Shown in pieces: positions 4,730 to 12,727 of a stretch of 64,000 bases of DNA. The stretch is from Methanomassiliicoccales archaeon (GTDB taxonomy: Archaea; Thermoplasmatota; Thermoplasmata; Methanomassiliicoccales; UBA472). A program made the translations under genes and the position numbers. The DNA lies in the NCBI GenBank assembly GCA_026394375.1, contig JAPKYJ010000024.1, positions 101,577 through 165,576 of the forward strand, given 5' to 3'. Under the pieces are notes generated by a model, which was not told the origin of the DNA, made no database searches, and saw only the letters and a list, made by a program, of their open reading frames with translations. The number at the start of each line of letters is the position of its first letter. Position 1 is the stretch's first letter.

Positions 4730-5734
4730 CTATGCGAGCTCGACCGTGCCCACGATCCTCAATTTTCCACCTTCCATGTGCATGAGCACCCCCCTTGCGC
4801 CGGGAGGATGAACGACCTCCTTCTCCAGGGAGAGTTCTAGCATCGGCCGTCGCCAGTCAGCTCCGTTCTCGACCCCGACCACCCGGGCGGGTATGAACTG
4901 CATCCAATGTCCGAGATGGACCACCATGCCCTCTTTGAGCGGCGTGGGCCAGAAGCGTATCAGCTCCGCTTTTCCTTTTATCATGAGGTCGCATCTCATG
5001 TCCGATTGATTGGTGAGCACGAACCCTCTGTCGAGTTCGTCCGAGTCCACGCCCTTCAATGACAATCCCACTCTGTCTCCGCTAACGGCCATCTCGAAAT
5101 CGTCTTCGTGCTTCTGGACCGATCGCACCAGAGTCTCCTTCTTTCCAGGTAGGGCTTTGAGCGTATCGTGCTTGCGTATCTCCCCGCGCGCCACCAACCC
5201 CAGGACGACCGTGCCGACGCCCTTCACATTGAAACAATGGTCGATGGGGACGGAACCACCGGCCGACGACGGAGCTGGGGCGGTCGCTTTTCCCGCTTCA
5301 TCTAATAACCATTCGCGCAGTTTCACGAGGTCGCCATCAACATAAGCATAGTTCTCCGCCACCGTGCCCTTGATCATCGGTGCCAGCTGCTCCTTGGTGA
5401 GGAAGTTGCGCAGAAGTATCAGGCCACGATGGCGCTGTAGCACGTCCAGCATGAGGAGCGATTCGCCGAACTGGGCGTTTATCTGATCGACCACCAGCAG
5501 AGCCATGTCAGCGATGGCGCAAGTGTAGTACAACGGTGCAAGGCGCTCCGGATACATGGTCGCCTCGATGAAGCTGACCGTGTCCTCCCCCCTCTTCACA
5601 TCGTAGAGGGTGATGTCGCTGGATGTGCCCTTCTTCCCCAGGTCCTTGGCGAAGTCCACCGGTCCGATGACCGCCACGCTCAGGTTAGGCATCAGGCCTG
5701 CTATCGCTGCCTGGCTCTTGAGCTCTTCGGTCAA
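4730..5734 (-). CDS. EF-Tu/SelB-like protein with a degenerate GTPase P-loop
   Basis: 334 aa. GTPase-like N-domain followed by clear EF-Tu domain II/III-like beta-barrels (PIDHCFNVKGVGTVVLGLVARGEIRKHD, GDRVGLSLKGV). The G1 motif reads GPVDFAKDLGKKGT instead of GHVDHGKS/T. The start may be Met-15. Confidence 0.6.
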   Translation of the reverse strand: MTEELKSQAAIAGLMPNLSVAVIGPVDFAKDLGKKGTSSDITLYDVKRGEDTVSFIEATMYPERLAPLYYTCAIADMALLVVDQINAQFGESLLMLDVLQRHRGLILLRNFLTKEQLAPMIKGTVAENYAYVDGDLVKLREWLLDEAGKATAPAPSSAGGSVPIDHCFNVKGVGTVVLGLVARGEIRKHDTLKALPGKKETLVRSVQKHEDDFEMAVSGDRVGLSLKGVDSDELDRGFVLTNQSDMRCDLMIKGKAELIRFWPTPLKEGMVVHLGHWMQFIPARVVGVENGADWRRPMLELSLEKEVVHPPGARGVLMHMEGGKLRIVGTVELA

Positions 5735-5845: not shown

Positions 5846-6562
5846 TTAGGACAATTGGCACTGTTGCCGGGGAGCTCGCTCCCTTAGGCGCCTGGAAATG
5901 CTCTCGCTCTGCAGCTCTCGGAGAGCATCTGAGGCAATCCATCTGGCGCCCTTCGAGCCGATGGCGGCGATCTTCTTTGCCTCTTCCACTGCCACGGTGT
6001 TGAGACGGATATTGCGCTTGCCCACCTGTCTAAGCGCCCAATTGACCGCCTTCCTGACCATTGGACGCTCATCCTTCGCACCCTCCTTGATCAGCGGAAG
6101 CAAGGCCCGGAATCGCTCATCCTCTGCCTTCTTGTCGTGAACGGACCTCTGAGCGATAAGTACGAAGCCCGCCCTCTTGACGTACTCTTCCTCGCGGCAG
6201 CACCAGTCCGGGATCACTTCCCAGGCATGAGAAGTGCGATCGAAAAGCCAGTTGCAGACGCCATCGCATAGGCCCCAATTGTCGAAGTCCAGGGCCCAGC
6301 GCTCCATCTGTTCCCTGGCAACCTTCCTTGGATCGTCCACCATCGCCGCCAGGATGCGCGCCTCGTAGATGCCGCTTTGCCATGGCTCTTCCGCCAGGTC
6401 GTGGTCTTTGCCCAGCTCCTTGGCAAGAGCCTTCATGGCCGGCATGGGGATCCCGAGGACGCACTGAGAAACGATCCCGTATCGGGCCATCCCTTCTACG
6501 TTCCGTGCATCTGCGTGGGAGCGCAAGGCTCGAATGGCGGATTCCGCTTTCTTCGAGATCAT
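5846..6562 (-). CDS. DNA alkylation repair protein (AlkD/HEAT-repeat-like family)
   Basis: 238 aa. Helical-repeat protein resembling the 'DNA alkylation repair enzyme' family (MARYGI..., WNLCDGVC, VRKAVNWALRQVGKRN). Confidence 0.7.
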   Translation of the reverse strand: MISKKAESAIRALRSHADARNVEGMARYGIVSQCVLGIPMPAMKALAKELGKDHDLAEEPWQSGIYEARILAAMVDDPRKVAREQMERWALDFDNWGLCDGVCNWLFDRTSHAWEVIPDWCCREEEYVKRAGFVLIAQRSVHDKKAEDERFRALLPLIKEGAKDERPMVRKAVNWALRQVGKRNIRLNTVAVEEAKKIAAIGSKGARWIASDALRELQSESISRRLRERAPRQQCQLS

Positions 6563-6757
6563 CTCATCGCCTCTTCATGTTTGGTTTCCTAGCTGAGATC
6601 ACTGAACGTTCCTCTCTGGCGTTGCCTTGTTCAGCAAGGTCTGCTCCAGCTGAAACCGAAACGCCTTGCCAATTCTTAAATAATGCCGCCTCGAATGAAA
6701 TCAGGCCGCGGTGCTTGGGCATTGCGAGGTGTGAATATGTGTGAGGAAGACGCAAGA

Positions 6758-7402
6758 ATGGGCATTCCCCTTCTGGGTGACAAGTTCCCTGAGGTAGAGG
6801 TCCAGACCACCCATGGGATGAAGAAACTGCCTGATGACTACAAGGGCAAATGGTTCGTGCTATTCAGCCACCCCGCTGATTTCACTCCAGTCTGCACCAC
6901 CGAGTTCTATGCCTTCATGAAGAGGTATGAGAAGTTCCAGAGACTGGATTGCGAGCTCATCGGTCTCTCCATCGACCAGGTGTTCTCGCATATCAAGTGG
7001 GTGGAGTGAATCAAGGACAACCTCGATTGCGAGGTGAAGTTCCCCATCATCGCGGACAATGGAGTACTGGCGAAGAAGATGGGCGTGGTCCATCCCGGAA
7101 AAGGCTCCAACACGGTCCGGGCGGTCTTCATCATGGACGACAAGTCGATAATACGCGCCATGATCTACTATCCACAGGAAGTGGGAAGGAGCATCGATGA
7201 GGTGGTCCGGGCCTTGGAGGCGCTGCAGACCTCGGATGCCAAGAAGGTCTCCATGCCTGAGGGATGGCCAAGGAACGAACTCATCGGGGACGAGGTCATC
7301 GTGCCTCCGCCACGGGACGTCAAGAACGCCATGGAGAAGAAGAAGGGCCCGAACTGCTACGACTGGTGGTTCTGTCACAAGAAGCTCGGGGGCCGAGTGT
7401 AG
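6758..7402 (+). pseudogene. peroxiredoxin (Prx6/archaeal thiol peroxidase type) interrupted by a single in-frame TGA at 7007-7009
   Basis: ORFs 6683-7009 and 7034-7402 are in the same frame. Joined, they give a full-length Prx with the peroxidatic motif FTPVCTTE and C-terminal CYDWWFC. The stop lies in SHIKWVE*IKDNL, where homologues have Trp. Gene identity is confident; functional status is uncertain. Confidence 0.8.
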
Positions 7403-7485: not shown

Positions 7486-8082
7486 TCAGAATCCAGGCAC
7501 GAGACCGGACACCGAGGTGAAGAACGGTAGGTAGACGATTCGAGCATCTCGAACGGTCAAGGTGTAGTCGAGGTCTTGCAGCACGCCAGGCTTCTCAGCC
7601 TCCATGGTCACCACGACGAAATCCGCCAGTTCCGCCGCCTCCACCTTTCTTACGGAGGCCGGCAAGCGTGGGACGTTGCCGAAGTCCAGACGAGAGGCAT
7701 AGCGCGGAGGGTTGGCGGTCATCATCGTGGCCAGCCTTCGGAACGTTCCGGGATCGAACTCCCCCGCGGGCACGAAGACGAAGATATCCCCACTGTTCTC
7801 CTGTGGACCTCCCCTGACCCAGTTGGAGAGCTTGAAAGCCGTTCCTCCGGAACTGGAGATGTGATTGATCACGAAATTGCAGTAGAGCCTCCAGAAAGGG
7901 ACGTAGACACGGTTCTCGAGCGGCGCACCCTTGGCGAAATCACCTATCTCAAAGTCCACCAATTGTACTCCACCGTCCCGTATGTGCATCGTGCGGCAGT
8001 TCTCGCAATAGAAGAGACGGTCCCTGACCTTCATCTGGATGGGGTTCTGGCAAGAAGGGCACTTCACCTGCACAACGCGCAT
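7486..8082 (-). CDS. N-terminal zinc-ribbon protein (soluble paralogue, last gene of the SPFH operon)
   Basis: 198 aa. CPSCQNPIQMKVRDRLFYCENC ribbon and YVPFW / VYLPFF motifs shared with the two upstream genes. Its ATG overlaps the upstream TGA (TGATG at 8080-8084). Confidence 0.7.
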   Translation of the reverse strand: MRVVQVKCPSCQNPIQMKVRDRLFYCENCRTMHIRDGGVQLVDFEIGDFAKGAPLENRVYVPFWRLYCNFVINHISSSGGTAFKLSNWVRGGPQENSGDIFVFVPAGEFDPGTFRRLATMMTANPPRYASRLDFGNVPRLPASVRKVEAAELADFVVVTMEAEKPGVLQDLDYTLTVRDARIVYLPFFTSVSGLVPGF

Positions 8083-9110
8083 CAGATATTCCCCCCGAAC
8101 TGTCCGCCCAACTGTCTAGCCACATCCTTCAGGTCCTTTGTCGAATCACCGCTTCCGTTCTGACGGTCCGAGAACTCGCCCTCGATTATCTCCGATCCGT
8201 GGCGGAAGAAGCGATAGGTGAGATAGAGCACGCCCGCTCCCAGGATGATACCTCCGATTGCGAGATAAACTGAGTCCTGGCTTGCAGAAAAGGCCGCCAG
8301 GAGCAATCCTCCTGCGGAAGCGATGCCCCCCACGGCCGAACCGGCCGTGATGGCCAAGCTCTGGAACAACGGGTCTCCAGGAGCGCGGCCGGAGAGCAGC
8401 TCCCCTGTCACCCCGTCCACGGTGTCCATGTACATGCGCTTGCGATACGAGTAGCGCATCACCCATATCGGATAGTAGATGATGGAGATGGATTTGGGGA
8501 AGGCGTGCAGGCGCTCGAAGGTGATGTGCGGCACGTGGGCGTTGGAACGGCCCCATTCGATGGCCGCTTCCTTGGCGTCCTTCATGGCATCGTCCTTGCT
8601 GGTGGTGGTCTCGAAGGTGGGGATGAGGTCGAAATCGGCCAACGCCCGCTCACCTTTGAAGTTCTTCAAGGTCTTGATGCCCAGGTCGCCTGGGTCGCAG
8701 GCGATGGCCGAGTAGCGATAGTCGCTCAGGACCATGATCTCCTTGGGCACCTTTTCCACATATACTTGACCTTTCGGTCCGGTGTGCCTCCTCTCCTCAT
8801 AGCCGCACACCCAGCCCGCGATCCTGGCCGTGGAGGACCAGAACGGGAGGTAGATGGGGTAGACCTCATCGGTCTTGCCCGTGCGCTTCAGGTCCCGAGC
8901 CTTCCAGCCCCGCTTCCACCAGGACTCGGAGGTTTGGATGGCGTTCTCGCGGGTGAGCTTGTTCTTGAAAGCGATGGTCTGCACGCCTCTGTCGCCCTCC
9001 ACGAAGAGGGTGGAGCCGCAATACTGACAGTTGATCGTGTCCTCCCCTTCGTCCATGCTCAGAGCGCCTCCGCAGGCGGGGCAGCTCAGTCCCACTGACA
9101 TCTCGGCCAT
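8082..9110 (-). CDS. N-terminal zinc-ribbon membrane protein (paralogue 2)
   Basis: 342 aa. CPACGGALSMDEGEDTINCQYC ribbon, IYLPFW and IIYYPIWVMRYSY...VDGVTGELLSG motifs, and two C-terminal hydrophobic helices (SLAITAGSAVGGIASAGGLLLAAF, LAIGGIILGAGVLYLTY). Confidence 0.7.
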   Translation of the reverse strand: MAEMSVGLSCPACGGALSMDEGEDTINCQYCGSTLFVEGDRGVQTIAFKNKLTRENAIQTSESWWKRGWKARDLKRTGKTDEVYPIYLPFWSSTARIAGWVCGYEERRHTGPKGQVYVEKVPKEIMVLSDYRYSAIACDPGDLGIKTLKNFKGERALADFDLIPTFETTTSKDDAMKDAKEAAIEWGRSNAHVPHITFERLHAFPKSISIIYYPIWVMRYSYRKRMYMDTVDGVTGELLSGRAPGDPLFQSLAITAGSAVGGIASAGGLLLAAFSASQDSVYLAIGGIILGAGVLYLTYRFFRHGSEIIEGEFSDRQNGSGDSTKDLKDVARQLGGQFGGNI

Positions 9111-9111
9111 A

Positions 9112-9855
9112 TCACATCCTCCACGCGACCAAGAGGGAGCTCACGAACACGCCCACCAAGGTGATGCCCATGAGCAGTGCCGCCAGTCCGAAGGATACGG
9201 TGGTAAGCAGGGTCTCCGCGAAGAAAGCTCCGAAGCCCACGACCGCCACGGCCGTGTAGGGGGCGGAACCCCTTCCAGGATAGGAGGCGGCGAACACCTC
9301 GCCCGATGAGCCGTCCAAGACCACTTCGTATCTCTTGCCATTGAAGACGTAGTCAAGCTTCCAGATGGGGAAGTACACCAGTGCCTGCTCTCTCGGCTTG
9401 CCCGGCAAGGACTCGAGATAGGACACCATTTCGATATCTGGCTTGATGAGTTCCACTCCTCCCAAGTCGTATTTGGAGTCGAAGATCTTCATGTCTCCGC
9501 CCACGACCTTCAGGTTGTGCAATCCAGGCAGGGTGGTGGAACCAGCGGGCTCCACCTTGACCTCCTCCTTGCCGTCCACGTCTCGTTTGAAATAGTAGAC
9601 GGGGAAGTACTGGCGCTTTACTCCAGCCAGCTGCGCCAATCGGTCCAGGTTCTTGGCCTTGGTGCTGCCCGCCGCCCATCGTCTGAACACGCCCACGGCG
9701 TCGTTCTCCTGCACCATGAACGGGATGATGTAGTAGAACCCGGCACCTGAGCGATCGATGTAGATCTGGCTCGAGCAGTATGAGCACTTGACGAACTTGC
9801 TCCCCGCTTCGAACTCCACCTTGGCATTGCACTTCGGGCATTGGACTGAGGCCAT
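9112..9855 (-). CDS. N-terminal zinc-ribbon membrane protein (paralogue 1)
   Basis: 247 aa. CPKCNAKVEFEAGSKFVKCSYC ribbon, YFPVYYF and VYFPIWKLDYVFNGKRYEVVLDGSSGEVF motifs, and two C-terminal TM helices. Confidence 0.7.
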   Translation of the reverse strand: MASVQCPKCNAKVEFEAGSKFVKCSYCSSQIYIDRSGAGFYYIIPFMVQENDAVGVFRRWAAGSTKAKNLDRLAQLAGVKRQYFPVYYFKRDVDGKEEVKVEPAGSTTLPGLHNLKVVGGDMKIFDSKYDLGGVELIKPDIEMVSYLESLPGKPREQALVYFPIWKLDYVFNGKRYEVVLDGSSGEVFAASYPGRGSAPYTAVAVVGFGAFFAETLLTTVSFGLAALLMGITLVGVFVSSLLVAWRM

Positions 9856-9878
9856 CCCATCCCCTCCTTGATCCTAGC

Positions 9879-10988
9879 TCACGCGGTCTTTCCGCACTCC
9901 GGGCAGAACTTGGAGCTGGCTGGAACCTGAGCCCCGCAGGAAGCGCATTTCTTGCTTACTCTCAGGGTAGTCCCACAGTTGGGGCAGAACTTCGTCCCTT
10001 CCGCCACCTTCTCCCCGCACTTGGGGCAGGGGACCGTGGCCGCTGCCATCTTCCCACCGCACTCGGAGCAGAACTTGCTCGTGACCGGATTGGGGGTTCC
10101 GCACTTCGGGCACGGAAGCATGGGCGCTTGCTGCGCCGGGGGCTGCTGTCCCGGGGGCGAGCGCATGGAATCCATCATCTGGTAGCCCATACCGATGCCC
10201 GCTCCCACGCCCACTCCTACGCCTGCCGCCCCACCGGACGGGTTCTGGGCCGCCTCGCGCATGGCCTGCCCGGACTGGTACTGCATGTAGTTGGCGTTCA
10301 GCACCTGCATCGACGAGCGGGTGTCCACCGCCTTCTGCACCTCGTCCGGAACGGAGACATAGAGTCCAGAGACCTTGTCCACGCTCAGTCCGTAGAGGTC
10401 GAAGTGGTCCTTGGACCGGGAGAGCACGACCTGCTCGATGTTGGTGAGGTTGGAGGCCATGTCCACCACGCCCATCCCCTGGTTCTTCATGTCGCCCAGG
10501 GAATCGTAGACCAGAAGCACCATCTGCTCCTTGATGCGCTCCTCCACGTCGGCGGAGGAAGCGAAGTTCAAGGTACCCACGAACTGGTTCACGAAGTTCG
10601 CTGCCGAGGATAACTTGTACCGGAACTCGCCGAACACCCGCAGGTTGACGATGCCAAAGTCCTTGTCCCGGAACTGGTAGGGCTGCTTGGACCCGAACTT
10701 GCCGTCGAACACCCTCTTCTGCAGGTAGACGACCTCCGCCTGCTGCTGTGCCCCGGAAAGGAATTTGACGATCTTGCCGACGATGGGCGCGTTCAGTGAG
10801 GTAAGGGCGTAACGGTCCGGTCTGTCGATGTAGTCCAGCACCTTGCCGTCGCGGAAGAAGACCGCGATCTCGTCCTCTCTTACCACGATGTTGTCGTTGA
10901 ACTTGATGTTGCGAGGGATGCGATACATGATGTTGCTGCGCTTGTCCACATCCTCCCACTTGAAAGTGTCCGCCCCGATGACGCTCAT
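9879..10988 (-). CDS. SPFH/band-7-like protein with three C-terminal zinc ribbons (COG4260/YdjI-like)
   Basis: 369 aa. The N-terminal ~250 aa resemble the SPFH 'virion core protein-like' family (FKWEDVDKRSNIMYRIP...VFFRDGKVLD...). A Gly/Gln-rich linker follows, then three C-x2-C-x9-10-C-x2-C ribbons (CPKCGTP...CSECG, CPKCGEK...CPNCG, CASCGAQ...CPECG). Confidence 0.8.
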   Translation of the reverse strand: MSVIGADTFKWEDVDKRSNIMYRIPRNIKFNDNIVVREDEIAVFFRDGKVLDYIDRPDRYALTSLNAPIVGKIVKFLSGAQQQAEVVYLQKRVFDGKFGSKQPYQFRDKDFGIVNLRVFGEFRYKLSSAANFVNQFVGTLNFASSADVEERIKEQMVLLVYDSLGDMKNQGMGVVDMASNLTNIEQVVLSRSKDHFDLYGLSVDKVSGLYVSVPDEVQKAVDTRSSMQVLNANYMQYQSGQAMREAAQNPSGGAAGVGVGVGAGIGMGYQMMDSMRSPPGQQPPAQQAPMLPCPKCGTPNPVTSKFCSECGGKMAAATVPCPKCGEKVAEGTKFCPNCGTTLRVSKKCASCGAQVPASSKFCPECGKTA

Positions 10989-10992
10989 GTCC

Positions 10993-11523
10993 TCACACCT
11001 CCGTGTTGGTTATGACCCGCATTCGCCTCCCGAAGCGGTCCTCGAAATCCGTGATGCCCTGCTTCACGGTCACCAAGTCCGTGTTCGCCTGGGCCGTGTC
11101 CTGTGCGCGGAGGCTGCCCTTCAACGACTGCACCGCCTGGCCGATCGCACCCAGCATATCGATCATGCTGGTGTCGTATTCATAGAGGCGGTTGAGCTCC
11201 GTCTCCTTGACTTGCACGTCGGCGGCGATGCCCGAGTACCCCGTCTCCGCATGGGCCACCGTCCCTTCCACCTTCTTGAAGCGACTGATGAGCCCCCCGA
11301 TGGTGTCGAGCTGAGGCGAGCTGTAATCCTGAACGATCATGGTCCGGCAGTCCTCCAGACCGCGGCGCTGCAACCCCAGCAGGCGCGCCAACTGGGCACG
11401 GAGCATGCGGTCAGAGTCCCTCAGGTCCTCTTTCAGCCTGTACCCCCGGAATCCCGGAACGAAGGTCTGAATGGTCTTTAGCAGACCCCTGTCTTCACCC
11501 ACCCTATCTCTGATATCTGTCAT
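10993..11523 (-). CDS. small predicted all-helical protein, first gene of the SPFH operon
   Basis: 176 aa with no TM segment and charged, helix-forming composition (LKEDLRDSDRMLRAQLARLLGLQRRGLED...). There are 4 nt between its stop and the SPFH start. No family recognised. Confidence 0.6.
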   Translation of the reverse strand: MTDIRDRVGEDRGLLKTIQTFVPGFRGYRLKEDLRDSDRMLRAQLARLLGLQRRGLEDCRTMIVQDYSSPQLDTIGGLISRFKKVEGTVAHAETGYSGIAADVQVKETELNRLYEYDTSMIDMLGAIGQAVQSLKGSLRAQDTAQANTDLVTVKQGITDFEDRFGRRMRVITNTEV

Positions 11524-11677
11524 GTACGGGTCCTCCCGACCCTGGCATCAATATCTCGTCCCTCTCTTAAAAGTGTCGTCTTGGGGTGCGCTCGGGTGAT
11601 AGAGGCCAGACCAACTCTTTCTGCCCCAACCCGTCATCATCACTAGCAAGGATAAAATAGCCCTACTGACGATTCAG

Positions 11678-12727
11678 ATGCATCCAGTCAAGGTGATGGG
11701 TATGGACCAGAAGCGAATCGCACTCGTGGGCTACGGGAATGTGGGGAAGGCGCTCGTTGATATGCTGTCTGGGGTAGATCCATCGGGCAAGCGGTTCGTG
11801 TTCTCGGCCGTGTGCTCGCGCTCCCTAGGCGTCGTGCGTCTCAAGGATTCCTCCCCTAAGGGCGTGGAGAAGAAGCTCAAGTCCCAGAAGGACGAAGCCA
11901 AGGCCTACAATCCGGAAGCGAGGGTGGCGGAGATCAAGTCCTATCTGAAGGACGGAGACTTCGACATCCTGGTCGAGGCGACCTCCGCCGACTATCGCAC
12001 CGCTGAGCCGGCCAGGACCTATATACTCACCGCTCTGGACCGAGGCATCGACGTCGTCACATGCAACAAGGCGCCTATCGCTCTGAATCTCAAGGAGCTG
12101 CGAGAAGCGGCCGCCCGGTCCAACGCCTCCTTCAAGTTCGAGAGCACGGTCATGGACGGCACCCCGGTCTTCTCGATGTTCAAAGGAATGCCTCCGGTGA
12201 GGCTGATGAAGATCCGGGGCGTTTTCAACTCCACCACCAGCATGATCATCGACACCATGCGCGAGGGAAAGAACTTCACCCAAGGTCTGAAGAAGGCCAA
12301 GGCGGCAGGAGTGGCGGAGACGGACCCGGACAACGACCTCAGCGGCATGGACTCCGCGGCCAAACTGGTCATTCTGTGCAACGCCCTGGGAGGCATGCAG
12401 ATCGGATTTCGGGACGTGAAGACGGAGCAGATCACCGAGGACCTGCTGAAGCAGACCATTACCGGTGTCAAGGGTGACAGATGCGTGCGCGTGCGCCAGG
12501 TGGCCACGGCGAACTTTGAGAGCAAGGAGTTCAAGGTGCAGCTGGAGGTGCTCCGGCCGGAGGACATGCTGTTCTCATGCACTGGGGCGACCAACGCCGC
12601 CATATTCTCCATGGACCTTTTCGGAGAGCTGGTGATCGCGGAGCGAGACCCGACATTGCGGGAGACGGCGTTTGGTATCTATTCTGACATCGTTGACCTC
12701 TATACGAAGGATGCCTGCTATTATTGA
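11678..12727 (+). CDS. homoserine dehydrogenase-like NAD(P)-dependent dehydrogenase
   Basis: 349 aa. N-terminal Rossmann motif IALVGYGNVGKA and catalytic-domain-like VTCNKAPIA...FESTVMDGTPVF. Confidence 0.7.
   Translation: MHPVKVMGMDQKRIALVGYGNVGKALVDMLSGVDPSGKRFVFSAVCSRSLGVVRLKDSSPKGVEKKLKSQKDEAKAYNPEARVAEIKSYLKDGDFDILVEATSADYRTAEPARTYILTALDRGIDVVTCNKAPIALNLKELREAAARSNASFKFESTVMDGTPVFSMFKGMPPVRLMKIRGVFNSTTSMIIDTMREGKNFTQGLKKAKAAGVAETDPDNDLSGMDSAAKLVILCNALGGMQIGFRDVKTEQITEDLLKQTITGVKGDRCVRVRQVATANFESKEFKVQLEVLRPEDMLFSCTGATNAAIFSMDLFGELVIAERDPTLRETAFGIYSDIVDLYTKDACYY

Follow-up and report, generated by a model that had tools for sequence, protein, structure and literature searches.

Which function might be served in an archaeon by five tightly packed genes that encode a helical protein, an SPFH protein and three zinc-ribbon proteins? 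We addressed this question for positions 7486–11523 of the window, by which we mean the whole 64,000-nt stretch (64 kb; contig JAPKYJ010000024.1, positions 101,577 to 165,576 of the forward strand) analysed from a Methanomassiliicoccales archaeon (GenBank assembly GCA_026394375.1). The original prediction, made from the DNA letters alone, had compared this locus with the pspA-ydjGHI operon of Bacillus subtilis, a Psp system regulated by sigma-W, and had proposed an archaeal membrane-stress or membrane-remodelling module. The five open reading frames (ORFs), here G1 to G5, were all found on the minus strand in the order G1-G2-G3-G4-G5, with spacings of 4 nt (G1/G2), 23 nt (G2/G3) and 1 nt (G3/G4) and a 1-nt overlap (TGATG) between G4 and G5, exactly as had been described, and this arrangement is far beyond what chance can account for. 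Our analysis makes it probable that the operon encodes a YdjG/YdjI membrane module devoid of PspA and YdjH and equipped with a new core subunit, G1. The module is set apart from the known system by two copies of YdjG, one additional ribbon protein and a new helical core subunit that is widely conserved.

The link to the B. subtilis system was anchored by G2 (positions 9879–10988; 369 aa). Its residues 24–229 (10302–10919) matched the Pfam family Band_7_1 (PF13421), whose gathering score is 24, with 116.4 bits and E = 1.7e-33 and covered positions 7–211 of the 211 in the profile, so that the SPFH assignment held in profile searches. The C-terminus carried, as had been predicted, six CxxC motifs (residues 293–366; positions 9891–10112) corresponding to three Zn-ribbons and detected as three Zn_Ribbon_1 stretches, which were preceded by a Gly/Gln/Pro-rich low-complexity linker; no transmembrane (TM) segment was predicted in the protein. 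To our knowledge, YdjI is the sole characterised member of the Band_7_1 subfamily. As a reference, we fetched a genuine pspA-ydjG-ydjH-ydjI operon of the B. subtilis type (locus L133) by using the ydjG cloning primer of Scholz et al. 2021 as an exact DNA pattern. YdjI aligned with G2 over nearly full length in BLASTP (YdjI residues 9–322, G2 residues 6–342; E = 3e-12), which identifies G2, as judged by homology, as a true YdjI homologue. The shared architecture, a Band_7_1 domain, a low-complexity linker and a C-terminal Zn-ribbon without a TM segment, agrees with the descriptions of YdjI as a band-7 protein with a C-terminal Zn-ribbon (Ravi et al. 2024, PMC11237479) that has a low-complexity linker before this ribbon region and no membrane anchor of its own (PMC8581546). 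A tblastn search of plasmids with G2 returned only proteobacterial and other SPFH genes and no annotated Firmicutes ydj operon.

A second line of homology was provided by the ribbon proteins G3 (9112–9855; 247 aa) and G4 (8082–9110; 342 aa). G3, modelled by AlphaFold2 (AF2) with a pLDDT of 74, has a single Zn-ribbon at the N-terminus, a central domain of the alpha+beta type and, at the C-terminus, a TM hairpin of two helices (residues 202–243). G4 likewise has an N-terminal ribbon and TM helices at the C-terminus; its central domain contains an insertion, and the protein carries a tail of ~45 aa. The two proteins were similar in BLASTP (1e-12) and remained so in hhalign after removal of the ribbons (98.5%), and by this comparison G3 and G4 are clear paralogues. 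YdjG, described by Ravi et al. 2024 (PMC11237479) as having a TM segment, a pair of Zn-ribbons and an uncharacterised domain related to YpeB, aligned with G4 in BLASTP (2e-7) over ~250 residues that included the whole central domain. With the ribbons removed, the YdjG core matched the G4 family (R4; R3 and R5 likewise denote the families of G3 and G5) at 96.8% and R3 at 92.5% in hhalign, and the hidden Markov models of the R3 and R4 families recognised the YdjG core with E values of ~1e-10 (R3: 3e-10), compared with 0.6–0.8 for the best of 200 shuffled sequences. The central domains of YdjG and G3/G4 also have in common the motifs IPF...W, Y-P-F-W and P-V/I-W...G-x-x-G, and the overall layout of ribbon, central domain and C-terminal TM anchor is the same. 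Thus, by these sequence criteria, G3 and G4 are true YdjG homologues beyond the ribbon, and the proposed analogy with pspA-ydjGHI turned out to be stronger than originally claimed.

The fold of the YdjG-type central domain was claimed to be YpeB/PepSY-like (NTF2-like) by Ravi et al. 2024 (PMC11237479), and one orthologue bears the NCBI name 'PepSY domain-containing'. Foldseek with the G3 model gave nothing significant; the tandem-PepSY structure 4exr ranked first (E 0.08) and 5boi fifth (E 0.35), both with TM-scores below 0.2, and PepSY was not among the 25 Pfam families most often matched in 42 family members. G5 (7486–8082; 198 aa) has an N-terminal Zn-ribbon and a conserved domain and was negative in TM prediction, which bore out the description of two ribbon proteins with C-terminal TM helices and one soluble one. 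The proposed triplication of the ribbon component fared less well, standing for the G3/G4 pair and becoming doubtful for G5, whose resemblance to the other two was limited to the ribbon and a short Y-P-F/W motif. The G5 core, with the ribbon removed, reached 54% against R4, 40% against the YdjG-like proteins of a simpler locus type (type C, below), 1.6% against R3, 9.6% against YdjG and 0.2% against YdjH in hhalign, and the G5 family profile matched nothing but ribbon proteins in the PDB. A clear paralogy of G5 with G3/G4 was therefore unsupported by these ribbon-free comparisons.

We next turn to G1 (10993–11523; 176 aa), a subunit without a counterpart in the reference operon. G1 was predicted to be all-helical with no TM segment, and its AF2 model (pTM 0.82) showed a compact bundle of five helices (residues 4–21, 31–62, 70–90, 107–139 and 143–171) with lengths of 18–33 residues, in keeping with the soluble helical protein that had been described from the translation. 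The original prediction had found by eye no PspA/ESCRT-III signature in G1, and the profile and structure comparisons agreed. In hhalign the G1 profile reached 0.6% against the PspA_IM30 profile and 0.8% against B. subtilis-type PspA, compared with 99.5% for the positive control, B. subtilis-type PspA against a Chloroflexota PspA profile. Foldseek of the G1 model against the PDB returned nothing with E < 0.1, and its top 50 hits were without PspA, Vipp1 or ESCRT-III; sequence and profile searches of the PDB with G1 gave no match. The ESCRT-III fold, a long alpha1-alpha2 hairpin with further helices packed on it, was not seen in the AF2 model. Taken together, the hhalign values, Foldseek and the PDB searches ruled out G1 as a diverged PspA/ESCRT-III protein.

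G1 nevertheless belongs to a large family of its own. No Pfam family matched G1, and none consistently matched 73 diverse relatives. None of the outcomes that the original prediction had named as refuting it was observed. The only named relative was the NCBIfam NF047596 'LIMLP_15305 family', which G1 matched with E = 3e-10 and 40.2 bits, the curated cut-off being 210 bits, over nearly the full length (G1 residues 13–171, model positions 16–173 of 175). G1 is, on this alignment, a homologue of the NF047596 equivalog rather than a member of it. The Leptospira peroxide transcriptome paper that names LIMLP_15305 gave no information on function or expression of that gene. In an exhaustive G1 profile search, 1,293 clusters (50% identity) reached E ≤ 1e-3 and 686 of these also E ≤ 1e-10; nearly all of the 1,293 are ~175 aa long. 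Residues P23, R35, D38, R42, D117 and R167 were invariant, as were G24, G27, Y28, E32, G95, Y96, L110 and Y114; they sit in the H1-H2 and H3-H4 loops, in the opening third of helices H2 and H4, and at the end of H5, which places all of them at one pole because the bundle is up-down. The conserved pole includes loops with the sequences PGFxGY and GYSG. This clustering in the model points to a single conserved interaction site. Three family members, P0136, P0140 and P0148, have an N-terminal Zn-ribbon fused straight to the G1 domain, a further tie of G1 to the ribbon theme found in every component. Another protein, P0172, combines the N-terminal half of G1 with Band_7_1; it looks like a gene-call or frameshift artefact and was not used as evidence.

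To follow the gene neighbourhood, we turned the invariant G1 segment PG[FY]xGYxxxEDxRxxD into a degenerate DNA motif and searched species-representative genomes with it. At least 120 motif loci were obtained, and a G1-family ORF was encoded in every one listed; the counts that follow refer to the matches listed. Of the 101 loci that extended at least 1.2 kb downstream of G1, 98 had a YdjI-type SPFH gene directly after it in the same orientation. The carriers were Thermoplasmatota (Methanomassiliicoccales, Thermoplasmatales, Sysuiplasma and DHVE2), Halobacteriota (Methanomicrobiales, Methanocorpusculum, Methanocellaceae and Methanoperedenaceae) and bacteria (Chloroflexota, Vulcanimicrobiota/Eremiobacterota, Planctomycetota, Myxococcota, Armatimonadota, Binatota and Eisenbacteria). 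Thus, the G1 family is a near-constant partner of YdjI-type SPFH proteins across two archaeal and several bacterial phyla, and the idea of a specifically archaeal module had to be given up, since the G1-SPFH core also occurs in Chloroflexota and other bacteria.

Five locus types were distinguished. In type A, the order G1, SPFH, R3, R4, R5 seen in the window recurred in at least 13 other Thermoplasmatota or unclassified-euryarchaeal loci and in one Methanocellaceae locus. In close relatives the flanking genes varied from locus to locus and the five genes stayed together, which shows that they are conserved jointly as one unit. In type B (Methanomicrobiales and Methanocorpusculum) the ribbon triad has moved upstream and remains linked, giving R3, R4, R5, G1, SPFH; wherever R5 was present among the matches listed, it co-occurred with the R3 and R4 pair. 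Type C, found in about 35 Thermoplasmata loci, comprises G1, SPFH and one two-ribbon YdjG-like protein, whose core matched the R3 and R4 families at 92–96% in hhalign. Type D, with a TM-TM-ribbon protein, a G1-DUF4178 fusion, PspA and SPFH, accounted for all 11 Thermomicrobia/Chloroflexia loci listed and for locus L011, and type E, with G1 and SPFH only, was found in Anaerolineae and most other bacteria. The invariant core of the module is the G1-SPFH dyad.

Two features of these loci deserve mention in their own right. The type C YdjG-like protein (L007 7707–8741, L030 2467–3483, L044 3951–4973 and similar) has two N-terminal ribbons, as B. subtilis YdjG does, and no C-terminal TM hairpin, and a Gly/Met-rich hydrophobic stretch (e.g. 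GGMGGGLVDGMMIGGIMGGGMM) is inserted in the middle of its central domain; this insert may be an alternative way of membrane association. At three loci (L003 11070–12733, L005 7390–8967 and L006 8408–9430), genes for NfeD and a classical Band_7 protein of the stomatin type lie directly downstream of the module, so that two different SPFH systems stand side by side; the window has no such pair.

The type D loci tied G1 to the Psp network from a different direction. PspA adjoined the G1-domain protein in all 11 Thermomicrobia/Chloroflexia loci listed and in L011, and the SPFH gene followed in 9 of these 12 loci, that is, wherever the locus reached far enough. In L011 the precomputed Pfam matches ran from DUF4178, carried by the fusion protein, through PspA_IM30 to Band_7_1 with ribbons. 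The G1-domain protein was a G1-DUF4178 fusion in every type D locus except L010, and DUF4178 had already been found in PspA operons by Ravi et al. (PMC11237479). Two independent kinds of context, the PspA operon and the DUF4178 fusion, thus link G1 to the Psp network. Since G1-DUF4178 sits beside a real PspA and an SPFH gene, G1 is not a PspA in disguise but a partner in the Psp/SPFH system, and the sharing of one operon argues that the roles of G1 and PspA are non-redundant.

The exception, L010 (Chloroflexia; positions 6001–7308), encodes an extended G1 protein of 435 aa, P0218, without the fusion: its G1 domain is followed by ~260 residues that have no Pfam match and take the place of DUF4178; a gene for a DUF2207 membrane protein precedes it, and PspA-like and SPFH genes come after it. 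Long G1 forms akin to P0218 were also seen in P0236 and P0257. Upstream of G1-DUF4178 in L021 (1290–1814), L023 (6652–7176), L038 (6165–6683) and other Chloroflexota loci stands a gene for a small protein with a pair of TM helices at the N-terminus and a single Zn-ribbon at the C-terminus. This protein matched the archaeal ribbon family via the ribbon only and is therefore another kind of membrane-anchored ribbon protein that occupies the same place in the operon.

How far does the module depart from the systems already known? Both the window locus and pspA-ydjGHI are single co-directional operons. The window operon, however, lacks a PspA_IM30 gene and a gene for YdjH, the TPM-domain membrane protein of B. 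subtilis (Ravi et al. 2024, PMC11237479), and its gene order is G1, ydjI-like, two ydjG-like genes and G5 instead of pspA, ydjG, ydjH, ydjI. YdjG is duplicated with one ribbon per copy, compared with two in YdjG itself; the SPFH protein has three ribbons, compared with one in YdjI; and two extra families, G1 and G5, are present. No PspA_IM30 Pfam match was found in G1–G5, and a PspA profile run over the ORFs of the 64-kb window gave nothing (E > 5). A TPM/YdjH equivalent was likewise missing from the five products (no Pfam TPM match; YdjH in hhalign 0.1% against G1 and 0.2% against the G5 core). Conversely, no G1-like ORF was found in the Bacillus ydj loci. The uncharacterised Thermomicrobia/Chloroflexia operon shares with the window the G1 domain, a YdjI-type SPFH protein and a ribbon-bearing membrane protein and differs by its genuine PspA, the fusion of G1 to DUF4178 and the lack of G5, and its ribbon protein has an N-terminal TM pair, a C-terminal ribbon and no YdjG central domain.

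More distant comparisons were also informative. PspA/Vipp1/ESCRT-III proteins and G1 are alike in being small, soluble and all-helical and in being encoded by the first gene of an operon with a YdjI-type SPFH gene, whereas homology between them is undetectable and the compact G1 bundle differs from their extended alpha1-alpha2 hairpin. The stomatin-NfeD, flotillin-YuaF/YqiJ and HflK/C-FtsH systems similarly have an SPFH gene tightly coupled to a small gene just upstream. In contrast to G2, their SPFH protein is self-anchored in the membrane and belongs to the Band_7 (PF01145) branch, and the partner is a beta-barrel NfeD protein or a protease rather than a helical bundle. In Methanobacteriales, the ESCRT loci termed 'Meth_adaptin' hold a protein with SPFH, coiled-coil and Zn-ribbon regions; Makarova et al. 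2024 (PMC11188069), who described it, remark that SPFH and ESCRT-III may have been connected since ancient times. These loci resemble the window in having an archaeal SPFH protein with a Zn-ribbon and a contextual link to ESCRT-III/PspA; unlike the window operon, they contain Vps4, ESCRT-III and adaptin-like proteins, and no G1- or YdjG-type genes were reported there. The G1 family, the G1-SPFH dyad and the archaeal operon are undescribed in PMC11237479, PMC9239133, PMC8581546 and PMC11188069, and literature searches on COG4260, PF13421 and LIMLP_15305 found nothing relevant.

How could such a module work? In B. subtilis, the membrane foci of YdjI and PspA need YdjG and YdjH, and the recruitment of PspA needs YdjI (Scholz et al. 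2021, PMC8581546). Homology establishes G2 as a putative soluble, oligomerising SPFH scaffold and G3/G4 as two predicted membrane-anchored receptors of the YdjG type. The TM hairpins would hold G3 and G4 in the membrane and present the Zn-ribbon and the central domain to the cytoplasm, the side that these parts must face given the cytoplasmic nature of Zn-ribbons and the position of the anchor hairpin at the C-terminus. From there, G3 and G4 may recruit G2 to the inner membrane face, as YdjG and YdjH do for YdjI, with G5 as a probable soluble, ribbon-bearing accessory of the pair. G1 would be an obligate soluble partner of the SPFH protein, and the role we favour for it is that of an adaptor or regulator coupling the scaffold to its output. 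This output would be PspA in Thermomicrobia/Chloroflexia; in archaea, either the scaffold itself or a factor encoded at another locus could provide it. The module as a whole is likely to monitor or stabilise the cytoplasmic membrane when the envelope is under stress. Operon structure, conserved gene linkage, homologies, domain architectures and predicted topology are shown by the analysis, and we infer the physical interactions, the direction of recruitment and the physiological role, with the membrane-stress function deduced from homology and gene context. Several points weigh against this model: neither the operon nor the 64-kb window contains a PspA/ESCRT-III gene; recruitment may work differently, because the operon is without a YdjH/TPM equivalent; the putative G1-G2 contact is predicted from gene adjacency; and the survey was a motif-selected sample of at least 120 loci in 8-kb blocks that were often incomplete.

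The placing of G1 at the head of the operon, like pspA in B. subtilis, its all-helical nature, again as in PspA, and the constant absence of PspA from the archaeal operons among the matches listed would suit a different role, in which G1 is itself the effector, a membrane binder or stabiliser of non-ESCRT-III type that replaces PspA in archaea and is brought in by the SPFH/YdjG scaffold. The report by Popp et al. (PMC9239133) that over half of 915 archaeal genomes are without any Psp domain would also fit this role. We regard this as unlikely, given that sequence and fold similarity to PspA/ESCRT-III is absent in hhalign and Foldseek, that the AF2 model is a compact bundle and not an extended hairpin able to polymerise, that the N-terminal helix has a high charge and is not amphipathic, and that G1 and a real PspA share an operon in Chloroflexota, which argues against overlapping roles. 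The wider proposal that the G1 family forms a new, widespread class of SPFH-associated membrane-protection effectors, recruited by the YdjG/YdjI scaffold instead of an ESCRT-III-type protein, is somewhat less likely again; if true, membrane repair in PspA-less archaea would rest on a protein unrelated to PspA/ESCRT-III.

We consider it still less probable that the genes form an SPFH quality-control or microdomain system unrelated to Psp stress, comparable to stomatin-NfeD or HflK/C-FtsH, with G1 as client or assembly chaperone. The conserved unit has neither a protease nor an NfeD gene, G2 belongs to the YdjI subfamily, whose one characterised member works with PspA, and gene fusion and adjacency link G1 to PspA and DUF4178; the general habit of SPFH proteins to work with an operon partner would fit this proposal, as would the NfeD-stomatin pair immediately downstream of the module in L003, L005 and L006. 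That the module serves in defence against viruses, or is a mobile or viral cassette, appeared highly improbable. The flanking genes do vary between relatives, and some candidate defence systems include membrane proteins with Zn-ribbons, the weak PADLOC matches being confined to the ribbons; however, PADLOC-DB 2.0 had no match for G1 or G2, its ribbon matches were insignificant (best E 2e-4), PHROGs matched ribbons only, and a scan of viral contigs found no G1 relative. In addition, the strong conservation of the proteins inside archaeal orders resembles vertical inheritance, and the base-composition profile showed no anomaly over the operon region. Our preferred reading thus remains the YdjG/YdjI-type membrane module with G1 as a core subunit.

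YdjI is known solely as what connects PspA to the membrane in B. subtilis. The analysis shows the YdjI/YdjG pair to be far more ancient than the Firmicutes operon and far wider in distribution, and the most constant neighbour of a YdjI-type SPFH gene, over the two archaeal and several bacterial phyla, to encode an undescribed five-helix protein and not PspA. G1 gives the Psp/SPFH/ESCRT-III field a concrete new component, and nature provides variants to compare, with PspA present in Chloroflexia and absent in archaea and other bacteria, which bear on whether SPFH scaffolds act only via ESCRT-III-type effectors. For Methanomassiliicoccales, Methanomicrobiales and their relatives, whose Psp networks are essentially unknown, the operon is a first candidate membrane-stress module.

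The operon is flanked at both ends by opposite-strand genes. A homoserine-dehydrogenase-like ORF diverges from it at 11678, and a peroxiredoxin gene converges on it with its end at 7402. A TATA-box-like element, CTTTTAAGAG (11564–11573, minus strand), matched the consensus by eye ~45 nt upstream of the G1 ATG and is a candidate archaeal promoter. Each of the five genes has a GGAGG-type Shine-Dalgarno sequence, that of G1 being GGGAGGA (11531–11537, minus strand), 7 nt upstream of the ATG, and all five end in TGA.

The peroxiredoxin gene (6758–7402, plus strand) contains an in-frame TGA at 7007–7009 ('SHIKWVE*IKDNLDCEVKFPIIAD'), at a position which we take to be Trp in archaeal peroxiredoxins, so that a single TGG-to-TGA change would presumably account for it. 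A pseudogene, a sequencing error or a polymorphism could each explain this codon, and recoding of TGA is unlikely because TGA is the genuine stop of G1–G5. Farther away, a 334-aa ORF (4730–5734, minus strand) appeared by eye to be a translation-factor relative with motifs of an EF-Tu-like beta-barrel domain II and an N-terminal G-domain that looks degenerate.

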